DNA of 64,000 nt from the IMG/VR virus record IMGVR_UViG_3300044714_000124, positions 5,577-69,576 of that record, one strand, 5' to 3'. A program made the position numbers and the translations under genes. Position 1 is the first letter of the stretch; each line of letters opens with the position of its first letter. Positions 38,660-63,961 of this stretch are shown in pieces. The notes under the pieces were generated by a model that was not told the origin of the DNA, ran no database searches, and saw only the letters and a program-made list of their open reading frames with translations. The stretch is from a virus.

Positions 38660-38809
38660 GGTTGTATCGGTTCATGAGACATACATGGCGGCCGCGCGCA
38701 AGTATCAAGGTGCCTTTGCTCACGCCGGTCAGGCGCCGCAGAACGTTCCCCTCTCGCCCCATCGTGATTGGTTGATAGTGGCCAGTCCGAACTTTGGAGC
38801 CTAACCCCG

Positions 38810-40111
38810 ATGGGTGAAACCAACTGGCGCGGCCCGCTCAATGCGATGGGCTCTCTCGAAGTCGATGCGGGGACGACCGCGTCGATACAGCCGTTCGACG
38901 GGCCGAGCGGGTTCTATCAGGGTATCGTCTACCCCGACATTCGCGGCGCACCGTTTCCGGCCGAGGGCACGGCACCGGGGCGCGCATCCGGGTTTCTCGA
39001 CATTGCGTCGCAGTTCACGATCGATAACAAGCCGCAGGCCAATGCGACGAATGTGATCGCAACGTCGCAGGTTGCGACGACCTCGCTTGCCATTGCGCTC
39101 GTCACGGCCGCGCCGGCCGGGGCCAATGCGGGCTCGCCGCAATTGACGGTCGCCGTGCCGATCATCCCCAGCGGGACGACCGTTGCAACGACTGCGGCGA
39201 TCGCGATCGATTTCGGGTTCACTACGGGCACGACCACGGCCGCGAGTTCGACCGTCGTGGTCTACGACAATACCCAATTCACGTTGGGACAATGGGTGTT
39301 CATCGGCGGTGCGGGTGCCTCGGGAAACACCGCGGGCCTGTTCACCCAGGTGACGGCGATCGCGACCGCGAATTTCACCGGGATCAATGTGTTTCCGCTT
39401 CCGACCGGTTCGCTTGCCAATGCGCCGATCGGACAGGCTGCGCTTTACGGGTCGGGCCTGTTGCCGGCTCAGACGCAATTCGGTCCGGGAGCCGTCACGC
39501 CGGCTGCGATCAATCCGAATGTGCTTGCCGGCCTTTACAAGGTGCATAATCCGAGGGAAGCGATCGCGCGTAATCTATCGGTTACGCTGGTCACCGGGGG
39601 CACCGCGACTTCGGTTGGGTTCCTGGCGCTCGGATGGGATCTGTGGCGCCAGCCGATGAGCGAGCTGATTACCGTTCCGGCGACCACGTCGGCCACGACC
39701 GCATATGGCAAGAAGGCGTTCAAGTTCGTCAGTTCGATCACGCCTCAATCGAATCCGGCCGGCAATTCGTATGCGGTCGGTGTCGGCGACGTGTTCGGTT
39801 TGCCGATTCGTGCCGATGAATGGGAACAGACGCAAATCTATTGGAACGGCTGTCAGGTTCCGACCTCGCTTGGGTTTACCGGTGCGGTCAGCACCACGGG
39901 CTCGCCGGCCACCAACACGACGGGCGACGTGCGAGGGACGATCCAGGTTTCTACGGTCGGGGGCGGTTCGGCCGCCGCTGTTGCGACCGCGCAGGTATCG
40001 AACGGAACGGCCCGGCTGTGCGTTATTCAGAACGCCGGTGTGTGGAATCAGGTATTCGGGACGCCGATCAATACGGTGCCGATGTTCGGGGTGCAGAATT
40101 CTACGAACTAG
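38810..40111 (+). CDS. virion structural protein
   Basis: Thr/Gly-rich; GKKAFK, VGVGDVFGLP, ATNTTGDVRGT. Confidence 0.7.
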   Translation: MGETNWRGPLNAMGSLEVDAGTTASIQPFDGPSGFYQGIVYPDIRGAPFPAEGTAPGRASGFLDIASQFTIDNKPQANATNVIATSQVATTSLAIALVTAAPAGANAGSPQLTVAVPIIPSGTTVATTAAIAIDFGFTTGTTTAASSTVVVYDNTQFTLGQWVFIGGAGASGNTAGLFTQVTAIATANFTGINVFPLPTGSLANAPIGQAALYGSGLLPAQTQFGPGAVTPAAINPNVLAGLYKVHNPREAIARNLSVTLVTGGTATSVGFLALGWDLWRQPMSELITVPATTSATTAYGKKAFKFVSSITPQSNPAGNSYAVGVGDVFGLPIRADEWEQTQIYWNGCQVPTSLGFTGAVSTTGSPATNTTGDVRGTIQVSTVGGGSAAAVATAQVSNGTARLCVIQNAGVWNQVFGTPINTVPMFGVQNSTN

Positions 40112-40137: not shown

Positions 40138-40259
40138 AATCAAATCACGGTTACGTCGATGGATTACACCTATCAACACGGTGCCGATGTTCGGTGTCGT
40201 GCTTCAATGAGGCCGTGACACTTGAGATGTCACGGAAATCGAGTTCCCGTGATTTGATT
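40138..40259 (-). CRISPR. single-spacer unit A with a type I-G-like repeat
   Basis: Minus-strand repeat GATTTCCGTGACATCTCAAGTGTCACGGCCTCATTGAAGC (40240-40201), spacer 40200-40166, flanking inverted repeat AATCAAATCACGG/CCGTGATTTGATT. Confidence 0.8.
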
Positions 40260-40938: not shown

Positions 40939-41040
40939 TGGAGGATTAAACTTGATGCTGCCGCCAGCGAATAGGTTATCACGTTCGGGCTTCAATGAGG
41001 CCGAGGCGTGGATAGCCCCGGAAATCTGTTTAATCCTCCA
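40939..41040 (-). CRISPR. single-spacer unit B with a type I-G-like repeat
   Basis: Minus-strand repeat GATTTCCGGGGCTATCCACGCCTCGGCCTCATTGAAGC (41026-40989), spacer 40988-40954, perfect 13-bp flanking inverted repeat TGGAGGATTAAAC/GTTTAATCCTCCA. Confidence 0.8.
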
Positions 41041-53324: not shown

Positions 53325-54299
53325 ATGGCCGAACCGACGACCAATAATAAGGGTCTGATCGTTCCTAATACCGGCGACCTGGTCGGCGCATGGGGCACGA
53401 CCGCCGTCAACGCCGATTTCAACGCCATCGACGGCATGCTCGGCGGTGTTCTCAATCTTTCGCTTTCCGCTGCGACCAGTTTCAATCTGACAGCGCCGTC
53501 CGCCACCATCACGCCGAGTTCCGGCCCGACGCAATCGCAGAACATGGCGATTCACCTGTCGGGAACGCTTACCGGAAATGTGCAGATAGGCTTCACGCTT
53601 CCCGGCATCTATCTCGTGGACAATTCCTGCATCACGGGAGCCTATTACGTCCAGTTGATGAATTCCGGGGGCCTTGGCGCGGGCTCCTATGTCGGGTGCC
53701 CTCCCGGCTTCCCGATCTTCGTCTATTACGACGGGACGAATGTGAGGCTCGTCAACGCGCCCCCTGTCGGGAGTTATCTCGACCTCGCAGTGACGACGTC
53801 GCCGCTGTGGATGACGGCTTCTTCGTTCGTGCCATATCTGCCTTGTAATGGCTCGACCTATAATACCAGCGCCTATCCGCAGCTCGGCAACCTGCTGGGT
53901 TCGACCTTCGGCGGCAACGGCATCACGACGTTCGCGGTGCCCGACCTCTCGAACCGCTTCCGCATTCCTCTCGATCTGACGGGGAGCAACCGCGTTACGG
54001 CGGGCGGTGCCGGAATCAGCGGGACGACGCTTGGCGCTGCGGGGGGCGATCAGAGTCTCCAGGCACACACCCATGCCGCCGTGGCGACGGTGACCGATCC
54101 GGGGCACTCGCACACCGATATCGCTATCCTGGCGGGCACCGTGCTCGGCGCTCAAAATGGCTTTCAGGTTACGCCCAGCACGACCGGCGTGTCTGTGACC
54201 AACATCAGCGTCGCGGTCGCCAACGCCACGACCGGCGTGGGGGGCGGGCAGAACATGCCGCCCTCGATGGTGGCGGGGATATGTTTCATCAAGACGTGA
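53325..54299 (+). CDS. tail collar domain protein
   Basis: YLPCNG...YPQL..LLG.TFGGNG.TTFAVPDL. Confidence 0.85.
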   Translation: MAEPTTNNKGLIVPNTGDLVGAWGTTAVNADFNAIDGMLGGVLNLSLSAATSFNLTAPSATITPSSGPTQSQNMAIHLSGTLTGNVQIGFTLPGIYLVDNSCITGAYYVQLMNSGGLGAGSYVGCPPGFPIFVYYDGTNVRLVNAPPVGSYLDLAVTTSPLWMTASSFVPYLPCNGSTYNTSAYPQLGNLLGSTFGGNGITTFAVPDLSNRFRIPLDLTGSNRVTAGGAGISGTTLGAAGGDQSLQAHTHAAVATVTDPGHSHTDIAILAGTVLGAQNGFQVTPSTTGVSVTNISVAVANATTGVGGGQNMPPSMVAGICFIKT

Positions 54300-54305
54300 G
54301 AGGCG

Positions 54306-54827
54306 ATGGTGTGGTGCGTTTCCCATCGTGCCGATCCTGCTGCGGCTAGATTAGCTGATAGGCACTACAACCGGCAGAAGATTGGGACGCCTCAATTTGC
54401 GCCCACAGGTTCATGTTGCGTGTTCGTTACCGATTGCGGCCGGGCTTTCTGGATTACGTCATATCCGCTTGCAGAATGGGTAAAACATGCGTGGGGCGGC
54501 GCGTGGATATGCAGCGCCTTTCGTTCAGAAGGCGCTGGGTGCGCGTCTGAATTGATCCGTCAGGCGGTTGGTGCAACCCGTGCGCATTACGGCGAACCGC
54601 CGGCTATGGGAATGGTGACGTTCATCGATCGGCGCAAGGTGAGACCCATAAAAGTGCGATCGCGCGATGTTTGGGGGTGGACATGGCGCAAGGCTGGATT
54701 TGTGGAGGACGGCGAAACCAAGGGTGGCCTTCTGGTGATGCGATTGCATGTGTGCGACATGCCAAACGCTTTGCCGGCCGCGCCTCGCACGATGCGCGGC
54801 TCTCCGCTGTTTGATTGGATTGCGTGA
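54306..54827 (+). CDS. hypothetical protein, possibly Mom-like/GNAT DNA-modification fold
   Basis: LADRHYNRQ...CSAFRSEG..ASELIRQA...AGFVEDGETKGG; weak resemblance only. Confidence 0.35.
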   Translation: MVWCVSHRADPAAARLADRHYNRQKIGTPQFAPTGSCCVFVTDCGRAFWITSYPLAEWVKHAWGGAWICSAFRSEGAGCASELIRQAVGATRAHYGEPPAMGMVTFIDRRKVRPIKVRSRDVWGWTWRKAGFVEDGETKGGLLVMRLHVCDMPNALPAAPRTMRGSPLFDWIA

Positions 54828-56878
54828 TGCCATTCGGAGAAATTAAGCTCGTCCCCGGCGTCAATGTCGAGCGCACTCCGACATTGCTGCAAGCCTCGAT
54901 CTCGTCCGGCAACCTCATCCGCTTCAAAGACGGTCTCGTCCAGAAGCTCGGCGGCTGGCAGTCTTATTACCCTTTCAGCGTGCCGGGCATGCCGCGCGAT
55001 CTGCACGCCTGGGAAGACCTCGATCAGGTCACTCATCTCGGCGTCGGCACCACGACCGCGCTTGGCGTCATCACGAACAACAATTACCAGGACATCACGC
55101 CGCAGACCCTGACGACGAACTTTCCGCCGAATTTCACCACTACCAGCGGCTCGCCGATCGTCACCGTGACTGATACGAACATCAATAACGTCACGATCTA
55201 CGACGCGGTTTATTTCAACACGCCGGTGAGCGTTGACGGGATCATCCTCTCCGGCCTGTATGCGATCAGCGAAGTGACCGGGGCGGATTCCTACGATATC
55301 GTCGCCGCGACCAATGGCGTGAGCGGCGTGACCTCGCAAGGCACCGTTCCGGCGTTCACCACGACGTCGGGGAGTGCGCTCGTCGCGGTCGAGCTTGCCT
55401 CCCATGGGCTTGTGGCGGGCAGCACGATCAATTTCCCGATCGGCACGACTGGAAACGGGGTGACGGTGCTTGGCACCTATCCCGTGGTCACGCTTATCGA
55501 TGCCAACAATTTCAAGATCGGAGCGAGCAATCAGGCGAGCGCGTCCGGCTCCTTCAACGTGAACGCGGCGAACACGCAGCTTGTCTATTACATCTCGCTG
55601 GGGCCGCCGGCGCTGGGGGCCGGCTACGGGCTCGGCGGTTACGGCGCAGGCGGCTACGGCACCGGGACGACGTCGGGCAACACTCAGACCGGGACGGAGA
55701 TCACGGCAACCGACTGGACGTCGGACAATTGGGGCGAAATCCTTCTTGCCGTGCCGGCCGGCGGCGGTGTCTATGCCTTCGACCCGACTTCGGGCTTCGT
55801 CAATGCGCAGCTCGTCGCGACTGCGCCGATCTTCAACGGCGGCGGATTCGTCTCGGCCAGCCTGCAAATCCTGGTGCTGTGGGGCTCGACGGTTGCGGAG
55901 GATATCGGCGTCACGCAGGACCCGTTGTTCATTCAATGGTCGAATGAAGGGGACTACACGGACTTCGTGGACCTGACGACGAACCTTGCCGGCAACGACC
56001 GGCTGTCGTCAGGCTCGAAGATCATGGGAGGGCTCGCGGTCCAGCAACAGAACCTGATCTGGACCGATATCGACCTGTGGGCGATGAATTACATCGGCGC
56101 CCCTCTGGTGTTTTCCTTCAACATCATCGGTGCCGGTGCGGGACTGATTTCATCACATGCGGCTCAGGCGGTCCGTGGGAACGTCTACTGGATGGGGCCT
56201 TCCAATTTCTACGCCTATACCAGCAACGGCGTGGCGGTGCTGCCTTGTCCGGTGTGGGATGCCGTGTTCCAGAATCTCAATACGGCCTATCAGCAGAACG
56301 TCCGGGCGATGCCGAATACGCCCTTCAACGAGGTAGGGTGGCTCTATCCCTCGGCGGCGAGCGTCTCGGGGGAATGCGATTCGTACGTCAAGTTCAACAT
56401 CACCGAATCCGGCGCGCCTTGGGATAACGGCGTGTGGCCGCTCGCGGGGCGCTCGGCCTGGATCGACCAGACCATCCTGGGGCCGCCGATCGGCGCCACT
56501 CCGGGCGGGGTGATCTACCAGCACGAAAGGACGCCCGACGCCGCCGGGGCGGCGATGGTCTCGACATTCACCACGGGATATTTCTACATCGGCGAGGGCG
56601 AGGATTTCTGCTTCGTCGATCAGATTTATCCCGATTTCATTTGGGAAACATATGCCGGGACGTACATTGCTCAAGGGTCGATGAGCTTCAATGTGACGAA
56701 CTATCCAGGCGACACGCCGACTGTGTACGGGCCTTACACGGTGACCAAATCGACGGAATATTTATCGGTGCGGTTGCGTGGGCGGCAAATGTCCATTACC
56801 GTGACGTTCCAGGATGTGGGGAGCTTCTATAGGCTGGGCAAGGTGCGGTACCGGTATAACCCGGACGGGAGGCGGTGA
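54827..56878 (+). CDS. tail nozzle / DNA stabilization protein (tail tubular B-like)
   Basis: LVPGVN.E.T...IRF.DGLVQKLGGW, IQWS, VYWMG..NFY.Y, LPCPVWD.VF, RLRGRQ...RLG..R....DGRR. Confidence 0.75.
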   Translation: MPFGEIKLVPGVNVERTPTLLQASISSGNLIRFKDGLVQKLGGWQSYYPFSVPGMPRDLHAWEDLDQVTHLGVGTTTALGVITNNNYQDITPQTLTTNFPPNFTTTSGSPIVTVTDTNINNVTIYDAVYFNTPVSVDGIILSGLYAISEVTGADSYDIVAATNGVSGVTSQGTVPAFTTTSGSALVAVELASHGLVAGSTINFPIGTTGNGVTVLGTYPVVTLIDANNFKIGASNQASASGSFNVNAANTQLVYYISLGPPALGAGYGLGGYGAGGYGTGTTSGNTQTGTEITATDWTSDNWGEILLAVPAGGGVYAFDPTSGFVNAQLVATAPIFNGGGFVSASLQILVLWGSTVAEDIGVTQDPLFIQWSNEGDYTDFVDLTTNLAGNDRLSSGSKIMGGLAVQQQNLIWTDIDLWAMNYIGAPLVFSFNIIGAGAGLISSHAAQAVRGNVYWMGPSNFYAYTSNGVAVLPCPVWDAVFQNLNTAYQQNVRAMPNTPFNEVGWLYPSAASVSGECDSYVKFNITESGAPWDNGVWPLAGRSAWIDQTILGPPIGATPGGVIYQHERTPDAAGAAMVSTFTTGYFYIGEGEDFCFVDQIYPDFIWETYAGTYIAQGSMSFNVTNYPGDTPTVYGPYTVTKSTEYLSVRLRGRQMSITVTFQDVGSFYRLGKVRYRYNPDGRR

Positions 56879-57322
56879 TGGATCAGGCTGAAAAAATCGA
56901 TCGCATCATGGGGCAGCTTCGGCAGATGAAGGCGATGCTGTGTAAGACAGTATTTAGTGGTCAGTCGTACGATACGAGCGATCACGAATACGAAGAATTT
57001 CATGAGGCATGGAATGATATTTACGACGCCGTCAGCGGACTGCTGCCATCGGAGAGCCTTGGATTGGCGAAGGAGCGGCGGTGATGAATGATCATGGTAT
57101 GCAGGAACAATCGGCGCCGCTGAAACAGCTTGCGGCAAAACCTCTATTGGATCGCTTGAAGGAATACAGTAAATCTGATGTTGAGGGTGTGCTTCGCGGC
57201 CTTGTGGTAACCGGTGAAATGGCAGATTACGATGATGAAATGGTTAATCGAGTGAGGGATGCCGCTGATCTGTGTGTCGCCGTGCGCGAGTTGCTGAGGC
57301 AATGGCCGTGATTGAAAATTGA

Positions 57323-57646
57323 ATGGCCTCCGCCGACGATATCAACTCGACCCTGCAGGGCATCAGCCGCAACATCGCCAATTGGGTGACGGCGTTCAAC
57401 GGAAGGCTGATCGCGGGCTCCGTGACCCTCGGCAACGCTACCGTGACCGTGGTAGCTCAACCGGGGGTGACGGGGGATTCCGTCATTTTCACGATGGCAA
57501 CCAACGCGGCGGCGGCGTTGACGCAACGCACGAATGGGCTGTATGTTTCCGCGTTGACGGCGGGCTCCGGTTTTTCGCTGGCGACGCAATCCGGGTCGGC
57601 CAGCGGCAGCGAAACCTTCGATTATATCTTGTTCAATCCGAGTTGA
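57323..57646 (+). CDS. hypothetical virion protein
   Basis: 107-aa ORF with structural-type composition. Confidence 0.55.
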   Translation: MASADDINSTLQGISRNIANWVTAFNGRLIAGSVTLGNATVTVVAQPGVTGDSVIFTMATNAAAALTQRTNGLYVSALTAGSGFSLATQSGSASGSETFDYILFNPS

Positions 57647-57649
57647 AAA

Positions 57650-57760
57650 CCGCTGATAGGACTGCCGTTCATGTCGGCCTCATTGAAGCGTGCGAAACGA
57701 GGCCCGTGGGATGATGCGTGGGCCGATATTTTCCGACGTGAACGGCAGCCTTATCAGCGG
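57650..57760 (+). CRISPR. single-spacer unit C with a split type I-G-like repeat
   Basis: CGGCCTCATTGAAGC ends at 57689; spacer about 57690-57725; then ATATTTTCCG; arms 57650-57677 and 57733-57760 form a 28-bp stem. Confidence 0.75.
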
Positions 57761-57780
57761 CTCGACAATATGGGTGAATG

Positions 57781-58467
57781 ATGCCTCTTTTGCATTCCTC
57801 TTCTCCGGGTGCCTTCCGGGCCAACGTCAAGACGTTGATGAGCGAGGTTGGCAAAAGTCCTCACGTGGGATCACGGGATCAAGCATTAGCTATCGCATAC
57901 GAGCTTAAGCGCCGCTCCAAACATGCCTTCGGCGGAGCGCCCGCGCCGTGGTTTGTCAGGCAAGAATCCCGCGGGATGATGCGCGGCCCTATTCTCTCCG
58001 CGGTTGCCGGGCGAACCGATCATCATCCGATGTCCGTCGCCAGCGGATCGTATGTGTTGCCGGCGGACCATATGAGCCACCTCGGCCAGGGCAATTCGCT
58101 TTCGGGCGCCAACGTCGTCAACCGCATGTTCCGCATGGGGCCTTATGGCGGCGCAGCGCCCTCGATCAAGCACGGCATGGGCGCGCCGAAACCTCCGAAG
58201 ATGCAGGGCGTCATGGGGGCCTCGGGGGGCGCCATGGATGCCGGCGGGGCGCGTGGCAGTCATGGCGCGCCGGGTGCGCCGGTCCCCATCATGGCGGCGG
58301 GCGGCGAGTTCGTCGTACCGCCGGAAAAGCTCTTGGAATTCCTCCATCGCAACGGCCTGCCAGCGAACCTCAAATACGGTCACGCCATGATGGATGAATG
58401 GGTGAAATCGACGCGGCAGAAGCACATCAAGACGCTGAAAAAATTACCGGGGCCTGCGAAATCATGA
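57781..58467 (+). CDS. conserved phage protein (GRTD...GEFVV family)
   Basis: QALAIAY, GPI.S.VAGRTDH.PM.V.SGSYVLPAD, AAGGEFVVPPE. Confidence 0.7.
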   Translation: MPLLHSSSPGAFRANVKTLMSEVGKSPHVGSRDQALAIAYELKRRSKHAFGGAPAPWFVRQESRGMMRGPILSAVAGRTDHHPMSVASGSYVLPADHMSHLGQGNSLSGANVVNRMFRMGPYGGAAPSIKHGMGAPKPPKMQGVMGASGGAMDAGGARGSHGAPGAPVPIMAAGGEFVVPPEKLLEFLHRNGLPANLKYGHAMMDEWVKSTRQKHIKTLKKLPGPAKS

Positions 58468-58727
58468 ACCTCGATACGCCGACATACACCAAGGCGTCGC
58501 GATTTGTGACAAGGGAAGTGCCGTTTGTAACGTTTGGCAATCATCGGGGCCTGACCGATTTTCAATTGGCGAGCGACCCTGGATTGATGGAGTTTTTTCT
58601 ACACTTCAAACATTGCTTTAAAAGAAATGAATATCTCATGAGTTGGGTTTATGATCCTTATGATGAGTTGCAGGATGGGTCTCAAGCGACCCATCCGATG
58701 AAACTGCTGGGGCCTGCAAAATCATGA
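58464..58727 (+). CDS. AT-rich hypothetical protein ending with the same GPAKS as the upstream gene
   Basis: GGGGCCTGC(G/A)AAATCATGAAC occurs at both ends. Confidence 0.5.
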   Translation: MNLDTPTYTKASRFVTREVPFVTFGNHRGLTDFQLASDPGLMEFFLHFKHCFKRNEYLMSWVYDPYDELQDGSQATHPMKLLGPAKS

Positions 58728-59968
58728 ACAGCGAAGCGGCGGATTTTGCGTTATGCCGGACACATGCCGAACAGGCATGGTCGTTTCCAGCGCCTCCCGA
58801 ATGTGCCGCGAGCGATTGGTGGTCGCGGTTGCAGCAACAAAATCGCGGTGCGATCCGTCAGCTTCCGAACGCCGTGGAAGCTACCAGATTTGCTCAGACC
58901 AGCGCTGCGAGCGGCTTCGATCATCGGCTCGTCGACAAGGGCGATGCCCGGCGGGTGGTGAACTTCAAGCTTGAAGAGCTTGGAACGCGGTTTCTTGGGC
59001 TGAATTGGCCGCGAAACCTGATGGAGTCGCCGCTTTCGCTGCGCGAATCCATCGTGGACGTCGGCGGTTGCCAGTTGAGCAGCATTTTCCTGACGCATCT
59101 GTATTTTTATTTGCGGTCGTCGCAAATGGTCGGACGCGATCCCAGGAGCGTGCTCGAAATCGGGTCCGGTTACGGCGGTCTTGCCCGCATCTACAAGATG
59201 GGCCAGCCGCAGATGAGATATTATCTGGTCGATCTGCCGGAGTCGCTCTATTTCGCGGAAGTATTTTTGCGAGCCAATTTTCCGACCGCGCGTTTTCACT
59301 ACGTTGCGTACGGGGCGCCAATCCCCGACGACAATGTGGATTTCGTGTTCGTCCCGGTGCAGCAACTTGGCGCATTGAACGGACTGCATGTCGATCTGGT
59401 CATCAATACCGGCAGCTTGCAGGAAATGACGGACGCGGCGGTCGCATTCTGGATGAATTTCGTACAGAAGCGCATTGCTGCCGACTATTTCTACAGTTGG
59501 AACTATTTCCTCAACAACAAGAAGCATTTTGCCGAAGTTGGGGTGCAGGCTAATGCGATCTGCCCGGTGCTCGATCCTTATTGGGAAGTGCAGCGCTTCC
59601 GCATCAATGATCCGTTGACGTCGGTGGATTGCCAGCAGCGCAATTGGCTGGAGGTCGGGCTAAGAAGGATCAACGATAAAGCCTTCGATCCAGGCCAGTC
59701 GGTCACTCGATTGCTTGCGGAGGCTGACGTGCTGGTGGCGGCAAGCAATGGCTGGTTTGCCAAGGTGTGGATGTCGATCTGGCAGGAACCGAGGGCGATC
59801 GCGCTGAAGGCGATGCTGGAGGGCCTGGAAATTTTCAGGTCGGGAAGAAGCTTCGGCGTCACCAATCATCTATTGCTGGCGCTTCCGATCTTCAACGCTT
59901 ACGATGAGGCGGCTTACTATCTCAACCGGTTGAGTGCGCTGGCCGAGACGGCGGGACCAAACAAATGA
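58724..59968 (+). CDS. putative sugar O-methyltransferase
   Basis: SVLEIGSGYGGLAR, YYLVDLPESL, DLVINTGSLQEM. Confidence 0.8.
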   Translation: MNSEAADFALCRTHAEQAWSFPAPPECAASDWWSRLQQQNRGAIRQLPNAVEATRFAQTSAASGFDHRLVDKGDARRVVNFKLEELGTRFLGLNWPRNLMESPLSLRESIVDVGGCQLSSIFLTHLYFYLRSSQMVGRDPRSVLEIGSGYGGLARIYKMGQPQMRYYLVDLPESLYFAEVFLRANFPTARFHYVAYGAPIPDDNVDFVFVPVQQLGALNGLHVDLVINTGSLQEMTDAAVAFWMNFVQKRIAADYFYSWNYFLNNKKHFAEVGVQANAICPVLDPYWEVQRFRINDPLTSVDCQQRNWLEVGLRRINDKAFDPGQSVTRLLAEADVLVAASNGWFAKVWMSIWQEPRAIALKAMLEGLEIFRSGRSFGVTNHLLLALPIFNAYDEAAYYLNRLSALAETAGPNK

Positions 59969-60892: not shown

Positions 60893-63800
60893 ATGTGTAA
60901 GGGCTCGAATACGACCACCACACAGACGTCGCCCAATCCCCAGGCGATGGGGGCCTACACCAACGTCCTCAATCAGGCCCAAGGCGTCGCCCAGACGCCG
61001 TTCACGCCTTACGGGGGCCAATTCACGGCGCCGGTAAACGCCCAGCAATATGCCGGGATCAGCAACATCAACCAGAATGCCGGATTTGCCTCTCCCTACA
61101 TCAATGAGGCCGCCGGCTATGCGACGGAGGCGGCGCAGCCGATCGGATTTCAGCCGCTCACCACACCGCAGATCGATCAGTATATGTCGCCCTACACGCA
61201 GGACGTGGTGCAGGCGACGCAGGCGCAGTTCAACAATCAGAATGCGCAGCAGCAGGCTCAATTGACCGGCAATGCCGCGGCCCAGGGGGCGCTCGGCGGC
61301 GACCGCGTCGGCATCGCGGCGGCAAATCTTGCGGGGCAGCAGCAGCTTGCCGAAGCGCCGGTGATTGCCGGCCTTGAAAACACCGGCTATCAGACCGGAT
61401 TGCAGACTGCCCAACAGCAACAGCAGATGGGGTTGCAGACGCAGCTTGCCGAACAGGCAAACCTCGGCCAGGCGGCCTATTCGCTCGGCAATCTCGGCGT
61501 TGCCGGCGAGAATGCGGCGTTGACGGGAGCCAACGCGCAGGTCGGCGCCGGCAGTCTGGAGCAACAGACGCAACAGGCGAATCTCTCGGCGCTCTATAAC
61601 CAGTTCGAACAGCAGCAGGCGTTTCCGTTCCAGGAAACGCAATGGCTGGCCGGGGTTGATACCGGCGTCGGGTCGCAGATGGGCGGGACCTCGTCCACGA
61701 CGGGGCCGCCGCCGAGCTTGATCTCCCAATTGGCCGGCTTGGGAACTGCCGGTATCGGCGCCGGACAGAGCATGACCGGACTCTCCAATCTTCTGCCGCT
61801 TCTGGCGGCCGCGGGCGGCGGGGGCGTTGCCGGTTTCGCCGATGGCGGCAGTCCCGGCGGTGCGATGCCGGGGATCCCCTATGGCGGCGTTGCCGGATAT
61901 ATTCCCGGATTGAATCTCACGCCGGGCCACGGGCCTCCCTCGCCTCCCTCGGCATCGAACAGTTCGCAGCAGATGATGCAGCAGGCGGCGCAGCTCGCCG
62001 CCATGTTCAAGAATCAGGGCAATGCGAATTCAACCGGCATAAGCGGCGTCAACGGCAGTTCGCTATCGAATCCGAATCTCTCCGCGAACAATGAATATGC
62101 ACAGTTTCCCGCATGGACCGGGACGGGGGCCGATTCGGTTGCCGGCGATGCGAATGGAGGGGCCATAGCGGGCTTCGCTCCCGGCGGCTTCGTCGGTCGC
62201 CTGCCGATGAACAATCGCATCATGGTCCCGCCTCGGGTCATGTCCGGTCCGATGGGCGGGAATCGAGCGCCGATGGCGCCGATGCGGCCGGGCGGGTTGC
62301 GGGCCGGATTTGCGCCGGGTGGGCATGTGCTTTATCGGGATGACGGGGGGGCGACTGACGACGGTCCGGCGAATCCCCTGCCGGGGTTCAATCCCGTGCG
62401 CGACAGCGGTCTGGTGGCTTATCCTGACGACACCAATGTGCAGCCCGTCATTGGAGAAGGTGGTCAGGTTATGGGCTTCGCGCCGGCTGGCCCGATTTCA
62501 TACGACATGGCGGATATTCCGCAGCCTCGATCACGGCCGAATCCATGGCAGGACCTCGGGCCGAGTGCCGGGGAGAGTTCCGGGTTTTCTGTTGATATGC
62601 CGGTTCCCGCTTCGACCCCGAACGATTGGGGTAGTCTCAACAACGTAGCGGTCGGCCTGACGCCCTCGGGAGCCCCAAGGGGCAGTTCCGGGCAGGTCGC
62701 CGGCTTAGGCCCCTCACCGGCCGCCTCCGGGGCGCCACAGGCCGCCCCAGAAGCGGGTGGGGTCGCGGGGTTCGTCAACCGGCTGATCAATCCGATGGGG
62801 TTGAAAGTCAATCCGAACTTCGGCGATGTGCATTTCAATCCATCTCCGGCCGGCCTCGGCCTCATGGCCGCCGGTTTCGGAATGATGGCGTCGCGCAGTC
62901 CATTCCCCGGTGTAGCCATCGGGGAAGGGGCGCTTACCGGCATGCAGACTTATGCGGCGGCGACGAAACAGGAAGAAAGCGCCAAGGACGCGGCAAGGAA
63001 GCTCGATATCGAGGCGGACAAGGCGAAGCAAGAACAACAGAGAGAGACGGCGGCGGAAGCAAACAGGAATTTGATGGCGCAGCAGGGGCGGGAACGGATC
63101 GATATTGCGAGGCAGGCGCAGGACCCGGCCAGAAAGCTCGAATATGAAAAGCAACTCCTGGCGTTGAAGAATGATCCGGCAATGCTCAAAGCCGCGGCTG
63201 ACGCGAAGCGAACCGGCGCCGAACCTCCTGAAGCGATCGATTTCAGGGCTGAGATGGCGTTAGCTGGCAATCCGAGGGCGACACAGGGGCTGCGGGCAGG
63301 GACTCAGGCCGCATCGGACTTTGCGACGGCATTTGCGAGAAAAGCGGCCGAACAGGGGTTATCGCCGAAGGCGATCAATGATCGTCAGGCGCTCTATGCC
63401 GGGCAGATTTCGGGGCAAAAAGTACTTTCGAATCGCGAAGCAAATCTCCTGACCATAGGTAACGAGGCTCGTGATGCTATTCCGTTAGCAATTCAAAATT
63501 CGCAGGCGGCGGATCGTCACGGCAGTGCGACGTGGAATGCGCTGCAACAGAGATGGGAGACAGAATTCGGCGACCAGAAATGGGCAGATCACGTTACCTC
63601 TACCAACGCCCTTGTACATTTGTATGCGCGGGCGCGCAGCGGAGGCCAGGAAACGGTGAGTGGTGTCGAGGAGGGTCATCAACTGCTCAATCCAGCGATG
63701 CCGCCTGCGGCTTATAACGCGACAGTCAAGACTATGGCACGGGAGATCAATCGCTTCCTTCAAGCGCCTGGGGAAACTCGCGAACAGATGTTGAGCGGAA

Positions 63801-63961
63801 AGGTCACGCCGATCGATGTTGAGAACATCGGGAAGCCGCCGCCGAGCGCTGCTGTTTCACCGGGAGGCGGCGGCGCCCCGGCGCCCCCGCCTCCCGGCAA
63901 GTATATATTCAACCCGAAAACCAATCGCCTTGAACCGGTAACGGTGGCGGCTGGGCCATGA
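60893..63961 (+). CDS. internal virion / DNA ejection protein
   Basis: MCKGSNTTTT N-terminus, YMSPYTQDVV, GALGGDR, Q-rich helices. Confidence 0.7.
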   Translation: MCKGSNTTTTQTSPNPQAMGAYTNVLNQAQGVAQTPFTPYGGQFTAPVNAQQYAGISNINQNAGFASPYINEAAGYATEAAQPIGFQPLTTPQIDQYMSPYTQDVVQATQAQFNNQNAQQQAQLTGNAAAQGALGGDRVGIAAANLAGQQQLAEAPVIAGLENTGYQTGLQTAQQQQQMGLQTQLAEQANLGQAAYSLGNLGVAGENAALTGANAQVGAGSLEQQTQQANLSALYNQFEQQQAFPFQETQWLAGVDTGVGSQMGGTSSTTGPPPSLISQLAGLGTAGIGAGQSMTGLSNLLPLLAAAGGGGVAGFADGGSPGGAMPGIPYGGVAGYIPGLNLTPGHGPPSPPSASNSSQQMMQQAAQLAAMFKNQGNANSTGISGVNGSSLSNPNLSANNEYAQFPAWTGTGADSVAGDANGGAIAGFAPGGFVGRLPMNNRIMVPPRVMSGPMGGNRAPMAPMRPGGLRAGFAPGGHVLYRDDGGATDDGPANPLPGFNPVRDSGLVAYPDDTNVQPVIGEGGQVMGFAPAGPISYDMADIPQPRSRPNPWQDLGPSAGESSGFSVDMPVPASTPNDWGSLNNVAVGLTPSGAPRGSSGQVAGLGPSPAASGAPQAAPEAGGVAGFVNRLINPMGLKVNPNFGDVHFNPSPAGLGLMAAGFGMMASRSPFPGVAIGEGALTGMQTYAAATKQEESAKDAARKLDIEADKAKQEQQRETAAEANRNLMAQQGRERIDIARQAQDPARKLEYEKQLLALKNDPAMLKAAADAKRTGAEPPEAIDFRAEMALAGNPRATQGLRAGTQAASDFATAFARKAAEQGLSPKAINDRQALYAGQISGQKVLSNREANLLTIGNEARDAIPLAIQNSQAADRHGSATWNALQQRWETEFGDQKWADHVTSTNALVHLYARARSGGQETVSGVEEGHQLLNPAMPPAAYNATVKTMAREINRFLQAPGETREQMLSGKVTPIDVENIGKPPPSAAVSPGGGGAPAPPPPGKYIFNPKTNRLEPVTVAAGP

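Follow-up and report, generated by a model that had tools for sequence, protein, structure and literature searches.

Unit C, an intergenic stretch of a phage genome, keeps both conserved ends of a type I-G CRISPR repeat, paired but permuted: the 3' half of the repeat precedes a spacer and the 5' half follows it. It lies at positions 57650-57760 of the window, the whole stretch of 64,000 nt analysed from IMG/VR record IMGVR_UViG_3300044714_000124. Its anatomy, its type I-G origin, its recurrence with covariation, and a spacer-bounded, PAM-linked similarity to the adjacent gene are shown. With moderate confidence, we propose that unit C is a minimal, leaderless, single-cut crRNA gene, derived from a type I-G array, which uses the host type I-G system against relatives that carry a sensitive allele of the adjacent gene.

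Results

Anatomy of unit C

The elements that an initial annotation had listed for unit C are all present where it placed them, and its observation is confirmed base for base. The unit and the gene adjoining it are composed as follows.

57650..57677 (+), upstream arm, equivalent of the 3' strand of the repeat hairpin, with the conserved CGG at its end (57675-57677)
57678..57681 (+), CCTC linker; predicted Csb2 cut after 57681, placed by the published Csb2 geometry
57682..57689 (+), ATTGAAGC, the putative 8-nt crRNA 5' handle, same as the end of type I-G array repeats
57690..57725 (+), 36-nt spacer, of a length consistent with arrays of this repeat (71-75 nt period)
57726..57735 (+), ATATTTT and CCG, the 5' end of the repeat; CCG pairs with CGG at 57675-57677
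57733..57760 (+), downstream arm, equivalent of the 5' strand of the repeat hairpin, found by inverted-repeat search and RNA fold
57778..58467 (+), gene adjoining unit C, 229 aa; a guide would presumably target homologues of it in other phages

The arms form an inverted repeat of 28 nt, 89% complementary, with 55 nt separating them. Of the 28 positions of the helix, 25 are Watson-Crick pairs; positions 10 and 23 are G-U pairs, and position 12 is an A-C mismatch. The helix encloses CCTC, ATTGAAGC, the 36-nt spacer and ATATTTT. Inverted-repeat search, base-by-base pairing and RNA fold thus agree on the 28-bp stem, with one mismatch and two G-U pairs, that had been claimed from the sequence. RNA folding, proposed there as a check, returns the helix as both the minimum free energy and the centroid structure of 57640-57775, with an energy of -68.6 kcal/mol versus -42.6 +/- 4.0 in 200 shuffles (z = -6.5; none of the 200 as good).

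No second copy of the repeat lies within 110 nt of unit C, only complementary halves, and the unit lacks the two full direct repeats that characterise a CRISPR array or a virus-borne mini-array. Host repeats start with (G/A/C)TTTCCG. The positions conserved among them, xTTTCCG and CGGCCTCATTGAAGC, are all kept in unit C, one on each side of the helix; only the variable distal stem and loop of the host repeat are replaced. After the spacer, unit C reads ATATTTTCCG, and units A and B of the same phage (see below) start with GATTTCCG.

The promoter score of unit C is 7, and the nearest candidate promoter, TTGACG-18-TATGTT about 100 nt upstream, is unconvincing. No terminator was found after the downstream arm, where the outer helix is followed by CTCGACAATATGG, without a T-run. 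The 3' end of a guide would therefore be undefined, and the guide would come from a late polycistronic mRNA.

Type I-G identity of the repeat and other copies in the phage

There are exactly three copies of CCTCATTGAAGC in the window, at 57678-57689 (+), 40201-40212 (-) and 40989-41000 (-), and the whole 69,576-bp record has exactly three of the longer GGCCTCATTGAAGC (reversed control: none). The two minus-strand copies belong to further units.

40939..41040 (-), unit A: outer arms 41040-41028 and 40951-40939, full repeat 41026-40989, 37-nt spacer 40988-40952
40138..40259 (-), unit B: outer arm 40259-40247 (CGG end), full repeat 40240-40201, outer arm 40150-40138 (CCG start)

The spacer of unit B begins at 40200; fold z is -3.0 for unit A and -5.0 for unit B. 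The copy at 40989-41026 (-) corresponds to Rfam CRISPR-DR16 (RF01330) with 37.5 bits, above the gathering cut-off of 35. Unit C aligns to the same model as GACTGCCG-7nt-CGGCCTCATTGAAGC with 22.2 bits (E 0.015), below the gathering value of 35. The expectation that array finders would miss unit C was examined with this Rfam repeat model, which does miss the unit at its gathering score.

Arrays with repeats ending in CGGCCTCATTGAAGC adjoin Cas4g/Cas1g, Csb2, Csb1/Cas7g or Cas3g at 10 of 25 array loci (L123, L127, L140, L146, L147, L155, L161, L162, L183 and L194). The scan for cas genes covered 9 + 46 chosen ORFs of the array loci (the 46 out of 133 listed), and no other type I subtype was found among these. 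Judged by these neighbours, the repeat end of unit C is that of type I-G CRISPR arrays. For cleavage, the initial annotation had suggested a Csb2/Cas6 homolog, and it was correct to name Csb2. Csb2 of type I-G is described to cleave 4 nt beyond the 3' side of its 7-bp stem, leaving an 8-nt handle (PMC9638904), a geometry that places the cut between CCTC and ATTGAAGC. As a separate observation, array locus L181 adjoins Cmr6.

The virus record is complete (69.6 kb with terminal repeats). Searches of the phage for the type I-G genes of Csb2, Cas7g, Cas3g and Cas4g/Cas1g gave no match for any of them; the same Csb2 search does detect Csb2 in two bacterial genomes. It gave no Csb2 in L222, one of two bacterial genomes with a solitary unit. 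When 729 spacers from the collected array loci were compared with the window, no match exceeded 17 nt.

Recurrence and covariation of split units

The permuted layout is present in 29 of 183 distinct solitary matches to the repeat 15-mer, 26 of them viral (the window included) and three bacterial. It was defined by at least 7 of 8 pairs just outside the CGG:CCG base and by a CCG located 27-54 nt after the handle. Pairing among the 183 matches is distributed bimodally, and the 29 units have 28 distinct arm sequences. The distance from handle to CCG has its mode at 40-43 nt, a range that accommodates 22 of the 29 units. Around a control 15-mer with one base changed, CGGCCTCATTGAAAC (variant handle ATTGAAAC), none of 45 viral matches reaches 7 of 8 pairs or has the layout.

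Covarying arms, expected by the initial annotation in related units, were found in alignment A1, which comprises 23 of the 29 units. Paired cells make up 90.4% versus 55.9% in shuffles (0/500 as high), a figure that is partly due to selection, because pairing at 8 of the 15 positions of the helix was itself a criterion for inclusion. Both sides have changed in a compensatory way in 12 of the 15 helix pairs, with 122 compensatory cells versus 40.7 in shuffles (0/500), and the covariation score is 0.843 versus 0.09-0.21 with the partners slid. This covariation is drawn from analogous, not orthologous, units, as none of 10 relatives of gene 57778-58467 (33-50% identity) has the unit or the RGMMRG motif. 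The CGG of the upstream arm is invariant (23/23 aligned units), as is CCG, and the two T preceding CCG are conserved to at least 90%. The comparative evidence supports the claim, made from unit C only, of a split, permuted repeat that pairs around its spacer and that one cut would turn into a complete crRNA.

These data bear on two other explanations. The first is an ordinary phage RNA structure whose likeness to CRISPR is accidental: it could be an RNase III site or a terminator, stabilise the mRNA, or bridge a ribosome site as a hairpin. RNase III could plausibly act on a 28-bp intergenic duplex in a late operon, and the only fit in the terminator scan of unit C is an inner hairpin inside the loop (57701-57724), which is accompanied by GATATTTTCC. 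The stems of most units are, however, 10-16 bp, too short for RNase III; the outer helix lacks the T-run of an intrinsic terminator; and the helix does not lie between Shine-Dalgarno sequence and ATG, as GGGTG stands after it (57772-57776). The exact 15-mer and TTTCCG stand in register in 29 units, and in none around the control 15-mer. By recurrence, covariation and the control 15-mer, this explanation is close to refuted, and we assign it hardly any probability.

The second is an inert relic, a host repeat-spacer-repeat fragment that was gained by recombination, trimmed by deletion and is now without function. A truncated repeat-spacer-repeat has complementary arms automatically, and there are intermediates (L027, L047/L049, L222) whose arms equal the host repeat stem. 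Host stems, however, comprise 7 bp, versus 8-24 uninterrupted pairs in the solitary units and 28 with one mismatch in unit C, and pairing is kept in all of the 28 different arms. The conserved repeat positions are all exact, while the dispensable halves are lost. Promoter-like hexamers stand directly upstream of many units (mean best score 7.14 versus 5.56 at random sites; a score of at least 9 in 4 of 28 units versus 0.2% of controls). An inert relic is an improbable explanation.

Spacers, neighbouring copies and presumed targets

Translation from 57690 gives (V)RNEARGMMRGP, and FVRQESRGMMRGP is present in gene 57778-58467, which in PHROGs corresponds only to phrog_2423 (unknown function), over residues 2-50. 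The coding similarity of the spacer, and the TTT in front of the similar site, were pointed out by the initial annotation, and both are present (TTT = 57952-57954). The PAM of type I-G is given as TTN (Shangguan et al. 2022, PMC9638904). Units C and B each have a diverged copy in the phage itself.

57952..57990 (+), candidate diverged target copy for unit C: TTT and a 36-nt protospacer-like stretch in gene 57778-58467
40060..40098 (-), candidate diverged target copy for unit B: TTC (40098-40096) and a protospacer-like stretch at the 3' end of gene 38768-40111

In unit C, 24 of the first 34 nt of the spacer match 57955-57988, starting at spacer position 1; 7 of the 10 mismatches fall on positions divisible by 3, and those in the seed on positions 3, 4, 6 and 7. 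The spacer of unit B and its copy are identical at 27 of 34 positions, with 5 of 7 mismatches on positions divisible by 3. We read 57952-57990 as a putative immune allele carried by the phage.

The comparison was extended to 31 units (the 29 and units A and B of the window), using the first 34 nt after the handle. A nearby diverged copy, 79-404 nt away and matching at 23-29 of 34 positions, is present in 12 of the 31 units and absent in 19. In all 12 pairs the similarity begins at spacer position 1 and ends at the spacer ends, with random flanks. TTN precedes the copy in 9 of the 12, and in 10 of the 12 its PAM side faces the unit. Positions divisible by 3 (11 of the 34) carry 66 of the 104 mismatches by hand count. 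Spacers of such units also match other phages: that of L101 agrees with L009 at 31 of 37 positions (PAM TTG; all six mismatches at positions divisible by 3), and that of L076 with L101 at 29 of 36. Wobble-degenerate patterns for an exact or near-exact protospacer of unit B or C had no match in viral_contigs and none in metagenome_contigs, both scanned outside the window's own record.

Two other sources of the similarity were considered and rejected. Duplication of a gene fragment was suspected as VRNEARGMMRGPIFSDVNG resembles VRQESRGMMRGPILSAVAG past the spacer. The 12 pairs, however, start at position 1 and have flanks at chance level (0-4 of 9 on the 5' side, 0-5 of 8 on the 3' side; the highest 3' value, 5/8, is that of unit C and is taken as chance). 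Spacer capture through recombination of spacer and protospacer, as a cause of their proximity, was rejected by reasoning alone, because it would leave the repeat abutting the protospacer and not an intact diverged gene 79-404 nt away.

The spacers also bear on the possibility that unit C is an RNA decoy similar to the solitary repeat units known as Racr. The helix would then be a high-affinity, single-turnover trap for Csb2, perhaps also for Cas7g, that depletes host type I-G, and the spacer a passenger that came along with a fragment of a host array, the spacers of such arrays being phage-derived by nature. Solitary phage repeat units are reported to inhibit CRISPR through aberrant Cas subcomplexes (PMC10651486), and Csb2 to remain on its product hairpin (PMC9638904). 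Consistent with such a role, the phage has three such units, and the exact target is absent from the viral_contigs and metagenome_contigs scans. A decoy requires no spacer, yet the loop measures 40-43 nt in 22 of the 29 units and 12 of the 31 have a spacer that matches a site at a distance of 79-404 nt (9 with TTN); for passengers from host arrays, matches would be expected all over phage genomes rather than close by. We regard a decoy as unlikely to be what unit C is. The decoy and guide roles are not mutually exclusive.

A regulatory crRNA-like RNA, comparable to CreA/CreR or viral Cracr, would be a partial guide that lets Cascade bind without cutting, either at the phage's own adjacent gene or at a host cas or toxin promoter. 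Viral crRNA-like regulators are described for types V-A, I-B, I-C, I-E and I-F (bioRxiv 10.1101/2024.10.29.618823), and the spacer of unit C partly matches a TTT-flanked site 265 nt away. The regulators described in the same preprint need at least 9 PAM-proximal matches, a number not reached at the one candidate site of the phage, where unit C is mismatched at positions 3, 4, 6 and 7. The spacers, moreover, copy coding sequence of phage structural genes with wobble-position differences, not promoters. A regulator of this kind is thus very improbable.

Discussion

Proposed function

The phage guide probably borrows the CRISPR machinery of the host against rival phages. As a crRNA gene, unit C would retain only those parts of two repeats that are needed to make, or are present in, one mature crRNA: the 3' strand of the stem with CGG-CCTC-ATTGAAGC, the 36-nt spacer, and ATATTTTCCG with the 5' strand of the stem. 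As the normal hairpin loop is absent, the two stem strands pair across the spacer, and the lengthened 28-bp helix would rebuild the conserved CCG:CGG stem base.

We infer processing, loading and targeting as follows. Host Csb2, the Cas5-Cas6 fusion of type I-G, would bind the helix and cleave once, 4 nt beyond its base on the 3' side: after CGG-CCTC and before ATTGAAGC, at 57681/57682. The downstream product, composed of the 8-nt handle, the spacer and the 3' strand, would still be paired to the severed upstream arm, so that one repeat-like helix would serve both ends of the guide. The guide would join host Cascade-Cas3 and direct it to TTN-flanked homologues of gene 57778-58467 in related phages, co-infecting or resident. 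The phage's own copy, 265 nt downstream, would be spared by its divergence of about 30%, which includes the PAM-proximal seed.

A further, rather doubtful possibility is a selfish allele drive, guided by CRISPR, that consists of the unit and the adjacent resistant allele. During mixed infection, the guide would turn host Cascade-Cas3 on the sensitive allele of a rival phage. Cas3 would resect away from the PAM, across the rival's site corresponding to the carrier's unit, and repair from the carrier genome would transfer both unit and resistant allele to the rival. The mechanism would be comparable to that of free-standing homing endonucleases in T-even phages, except that the nuclease is borrowed and RNA-programmed. 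Such a drive would account for three observations: spacers match only 79-404 nt away, the PAM side faces the unit in 10 of 12 cases, and the two T of the PAM fall on codon positions that are unable to change silently.

Comparison with known systems

Unit C shares with the canonical type I-G crRNA (PMC9638904) the handle ATTGAAGC, the 4-nt gap between stem base and cut (predicted for unit C), the CCG:CGG base, a spacer of about 36 nt and the TTN PAM. The canonical crRNA, as described there, is released by cleavage at two sites, in two hairpins that each consist of a 7-bp stem and its loop. In unit C, by contrast, two strands distant from each other make up an open-ended helix of 28 bp, and the mature guide would therefore be a two-piece RNA.

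Virus-borne mini-arrays (Medvedeva et al. 2019, PMC6858448; Faure et al. 2019 cited there; review PMC11656645) are, like unit C, described without cas genes and with a host-like repeat. Their one spacer resembles a gene of a related virus, of which the carrier has a mutated copy, and the target is near the array; the phage examples are leaderless, as is unit C (PMC6858448, PMC11656645). Mini-arrays in these accounts have at least two full repeats, whereas unit C has half of each, paired across the spacer, and a single cut would be enough. The I-G subtype and the lengthened helix also set unit C apart from the published virus-borne mini-arrays described in these sources.

Racr (Camara-Wilpert et al. 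2023, PMC10651486) are likewise repeat-derived, located in phage intergenic regions and often just downstream of a promoter. They are described as a single full repeat with no required spacer; unit C is not a full repeat and has a spacer of conserved length. The Racr finder is described to require at least 50% repeat coverage (PMC10651486), a threshold of which the halves of unit C (15 and about 8 of about 37 nt) would fall short.

CreA/CreR mini-arrays, with their degenerate distal repeat (PMC10120712), and viral Cracr (bioRxiv 10.1101/2024.10.29.618823) resemble unit C in being degenerate single-spacer units with a partial repeat, carried by viruses. Their spacers, according to these two sources, are short, with matches to promoters of cas or toxin genes beside a PAM, while that of unit C is of full length and copies phage coding sequence. 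In the literature searched on mini-arrays, solitary repeats and crRNA-like regulators, as far as its accessible text goes, neither type I-G nor pairing of repeat halves across a spacer is described; an earlier listing in supplementary tables or in Faure et al. 2019 is possible.

Significance

The close linkage between a guide and a resistant copy of the targeted sequence was described in 2019 as lacking an explanation (PMC6858448); the present set offers a dozen independent cases in which to study it. The orientation of the PAM and the codon phase provide clues, which suggest drive-like spread or selection for escape-proof targeting. The split design would also be a natural solution to an engineering problem, a complete type I guide from one transcript by one cut without direct repeats, and hence without repeat-mediated spacer loss. 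Known phage mini-arrays and solitary repeats were found by searches for whole repeats. As only about 15 + 8 nt of the repeat are kept, such searches would miss the split design, and phages may therefore employ CRISPR guides more often than has been counted, at least in the case of type I-G.

Anatomy and neighbourhood of unit C

The phage record, of which the window covers bases 5577-69576, comprises 69,576 bp, carries direct terminal repeats and is rated 100% complete, with all large ORFs on the + strand. Unit C is surrounded by structural genes and occupies most of a 131-nt gap between a 107-aa ORF and a 229-aa gene.

Unit C and the genes around it (window coordinates)
53325-54299, tail protein
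54815-56878, virion structural protein
57323-57646, 107-aa ORF, one border of the gap
57650-57760, + strand, unit C, split type I-G repeat around one 36-nt spacer (57690-57725)
57778-58467, 229-aa gene, function not known, other border of the gap
60893-63961, DNA ejection protein

The initial annotation had described unit C as a permuted CRISPR repeat whose halves pair around the spacer, and this description is borne out in every detail by inverted-repeat search, folding and reading of the sequence. The two arms (57650-57677 and 57733-57760), each of 28 nt, are separated by 55 nt and show 89% complementarity; counted by hand, their helix has 25 Watson-Crick and two G-U pairs plus a single A-C mismatch. 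The fold reaches -68.6 kcal/mol, compared with -42.6 +/- 4.0 in shuffled sequences (z = -6.5), none of 200 shuffles being as good. Within the helix follow, in this order, CCTC, ATTGAAGC, 36 nt and ATATTTT. The phage contains exactly three copies of GGCCTCATTGAAGC. The two others, on the minus strand, are the ends of full repeats starting with GATTTCCG, one of which matches CRISPR-DR16 above the Rfam gathering score; unit C itself scores only 22.2 bits.

An 8-bp terminator-like hairpin followed by GATATTTTCC is present inside the spacer (57701-57724). It originates from the palindromic codons of RGMMRG and might terminate some transcripts directly after the spacer. The structural module also contains, just upstream of unit C, two short ORFs with acidic products of 69 and 76 aa (56875-57311), neither of which has a PHROG match; small proteins encoded beside repeat-derived RNAs sometimes turn out to be anti-CRISPRs, according to the available sections of PMC10651486. 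Further downstream, the junctions after the gene 57778-58467 (~58447-58470) and after the ORF 58398-58727 (~58707-58730) carry, as noticed by eye, an almost identical sequence of about 21 nt, GGGGCCTGC(G/A)AAATCATGAAC. It encodes ...GPAKS and a stop codon, is overlapped by the ATG of the next gene, and may be a module-boundary repeat.

The repeat is of type I-G

The 15-mer forming the conserved 3' end of the repeat was used to scan bacterial genomes, which gave long arrays across many phyla. Type I-G proteins (Cas4g/Cas1g, Csb2, Csb1/Cas7g, Cas3g or a Cas3 extension) are encoded in the flanks of 10 of the 25 loci with at least three repeats, and Cmr6 adjoins one array locus. No other type I subtype was found among the ORFs scanned from these flanks (9 + 46, the 46 being longer ORFs hand-picked out of 133). 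In the virus record, family searches gave no match to Csb2, Cas7g, Cas3g or Cas4g/Cas1g; the Csb2 search, as a positive control, recovers Csb2 in two bacterial genomes.

Host repeats start with (G/A/C)TTTCCG and finish with CGGCCTCATTGAAGC; in between come, in this order, 4 nt that extend the stem, a loop and the second stem strand. Constancy is confined to the two ends and the CCG:CGG base. Unit C retains every nucleotide conserved in type I-G repeats. As stated in the accessible text of PMC9638904, the type I-G hairpin has 7 bp, Csb2 cleaves 4 nt 3' of its base and remains bound to it, the resulting 5' handle is 8 nt long, and the PAM is TTN. By this geometry, the predicted cut in unit C falls between CCTC and ATTGAAGC. 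The variable distal stem and loop alone are swapped, for a longer, open-ended helix, its added length being what pairing over ~55 nt would require for stability. A single Csb2 cut would then release handle, spacer and 3' strand, still paired to the severed 5' arm, and one repeat-like helix would provide both ends of the guide.

Recurrence and covariation of split units

The 15-mer was found in at least 116 stretches of viral contigs, and 183 distinct solitary occurrences are present among the matches listed (viral, bacterial and window ones pooled). Layout was scored as pairing at the 8 positions just beyond the CGG:CCG base, CCG being sought 25-60 nt past the handle. Among the matches listed the scores are bimodal, with 1-6 pairs in 101, no CCG in 53, and 7 or 8 pairs in 29; these 29 split units have 28 different arms. 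Their loop is mostly 40-43 nt long and CCG is preceded by T-rich bases. Uninterrupted stems of solitary units span 8-24 bp, as against 7 bp in host repeats. With a control 15-mer differing by one base (...GAAAC), the split layout occurred in 0 of 45 viral matches.

Twenty-three of the 29 units were aligned; loci L026, L071, L073, L113, L209 and L239 were omitted for atypical loop lengths. In the 15-pair helix of the aligned units, 90.4% of cells are paired (55.9% in shuffles), 12 of 15 pairs change on both sides, compensatory cells number 122 (40.7 in shuffles, 0 of 500 as high) and the covariation score is 0.843, compared with 0.09-0.21 when partners are slid; these figures are partly built in, since 8 of the 15 positions served to select the units. 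The four outermost positions, unused in selection, are still paired in 14-18 of the 23 units. Promoter-like hexamers lie directly upstream of many units; for unit C they are not convincing.

Like this phage, L086 and a 41-kb contig (L071 and L088) carry three separate units apiece, every one of them next to a different gene. A solitary split unit resides in a 9.1-Mb bacterial genome assembly (L222), and its arms are identical to the stem strands in a host repeat of the Bryobacteraceae type; Csb2 was not found in this assembly.

The same phage carries two further units, located in gaps between + strand genes.

Full-repeat units of the phage (window coordinates)
40939-41040, - strand, unit A, full type I-G repeat and spacer within a 13-bp outer helix
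40138-40259, - strand, unit B, full type I-G repeat and spacer within a 13-bp outer helix with a CGG:CCG base

Besides the full repeat hairpin, both possess an outer helix in which sequence upstream of the repeat pairs with sequence past the spacer, and they attain the topology of unit C by another route. This form is also present in L046 and L119. Promoter-like hexamers were seen by eye just upstream (TAGACA-17-TATCAA for unit A, TTGCGT-17-TATATC for unit B); they are absent from the promoter-scan list. In two-spacer arrays of viral contigs (L027, L047/L049, L043), the first repeat is reduced to arm and handle right after a promoter-like region and is followed by a full repeat and sometimes a last 5' half. 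In structure they look intermediate between arrays and the split unit with its single spacer.

Spacers and their own copies

Own copies, the diverged protospacer-like sites of the carrier phage, were searched for 31 units (the 29 plus units A and B) as the best ungapped match to the first 34 nt past the handle within 600 nt. Twelve of the 31 have an own copy 79-404 nt away, identical at 23-29 of 34 nt. In a wider search (+/-4 kb), shuffled spacers attained 17-23, and 15-mer matches without the layout had no nearby spacer match. Similarity sets in at the first spacer position and has faded out by around position 36, with flanks at chance level, which excludes plain duplication of a gene fragment. 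TTN precedes 9 of the 12 own copies (TTC in five, TTT in three, TTA in one; the others have AGC, TGA and TGC).

Targets are found on coding and non-coding strands, and 66 of the 104 mismatches in the 12 pairs (hand count) fall at spacer positions divisible by 3. Two of the pairs lie in the window (57690-57723 and 57955-57988; 40200-40167 and 40095-40062). The unit C spacer and its own copy differ largely synonymously (VRNEARGMMRGP versus VRQESRGMMRGP); in unit B, five of seven mismatches are at positions divisible by 3, and those five are synonymous by hand translation. Mismatches at every third position place the two T of TTN on the first and second positions of a codon (or, for the opposite strand, AA on these positions), where no silent change would allow PAM escape. 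In Cascade every sixth spacer position is unpaired, and with this codon phase it would coincide with a wobble site.

In PAM, spacer-bounded similarity and wobble-type mismatches, the spacers thus resemble ordinary PAM-selected ones. Judged by sequence, their apparent source is other phages with homologues of the adjacent gene, of which the carrier retains a diverged copy. The L101 spacer matches L009 at 31/37 positions (PAM TTG) and the L076 spacer matches L101 at 29/36; no exact target of units B and C was found by wobble-degenerate pattern scans of viral and metagenome contigs.

In 10 of the 12 pairs the own copy has its PAM side toward the unit: eight of these copies are located downstream on the unit's strand and two upstream on the opposite one. 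The remaining two copies point their PAM side away from the unit. Cas3 moves 3'-to-5' along the non-target strand (PMC9638904, accessible text). Proximity, the PAM side in 10/12 and this direction allow a drive-like candidate reading, in our view an unlikely one, in which guide and linked resistant allele would spread together by repair after attack.

Relation to known viral CRISPR units

Among described systems, virus-borne mini-arrays aimed at related viruses come closest, and unit C fits this pattern. In the available portions of PMC6858448, spacers of such mini-arrays target regions near the arrays, with origin and consequences that 'remain unclear', and Faure 2019 is cited for leaderless phage mini-arrays against adjacent genes of relatives. 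Neither pairing of repeat halves round a spacer nor any type I-G viral unit is described in the portions available of PMC10651486, PMC10120712, PMC11656645, PMC6858448, PMC7099407 and bioRxiv 10.1101/2024.10.29.618823. A full-text literature search gave no paper on 'split repeat' with CRISPR; Faure 2019 and supplementary tables were outside the comparison. Virus-borne CRISPR units are already known, and, relative to these portions, the new feature is the pairing of repeat halves round a spacer, in type I-G. The main rival to a guide is a decoy role, like that of RNA anti-CRISPRs (Racrs; PMC10651486), solitary repeat units acting as decoys, and both could coexist. We give about an even chance to unit C being a mini-array-like guide against related phages.
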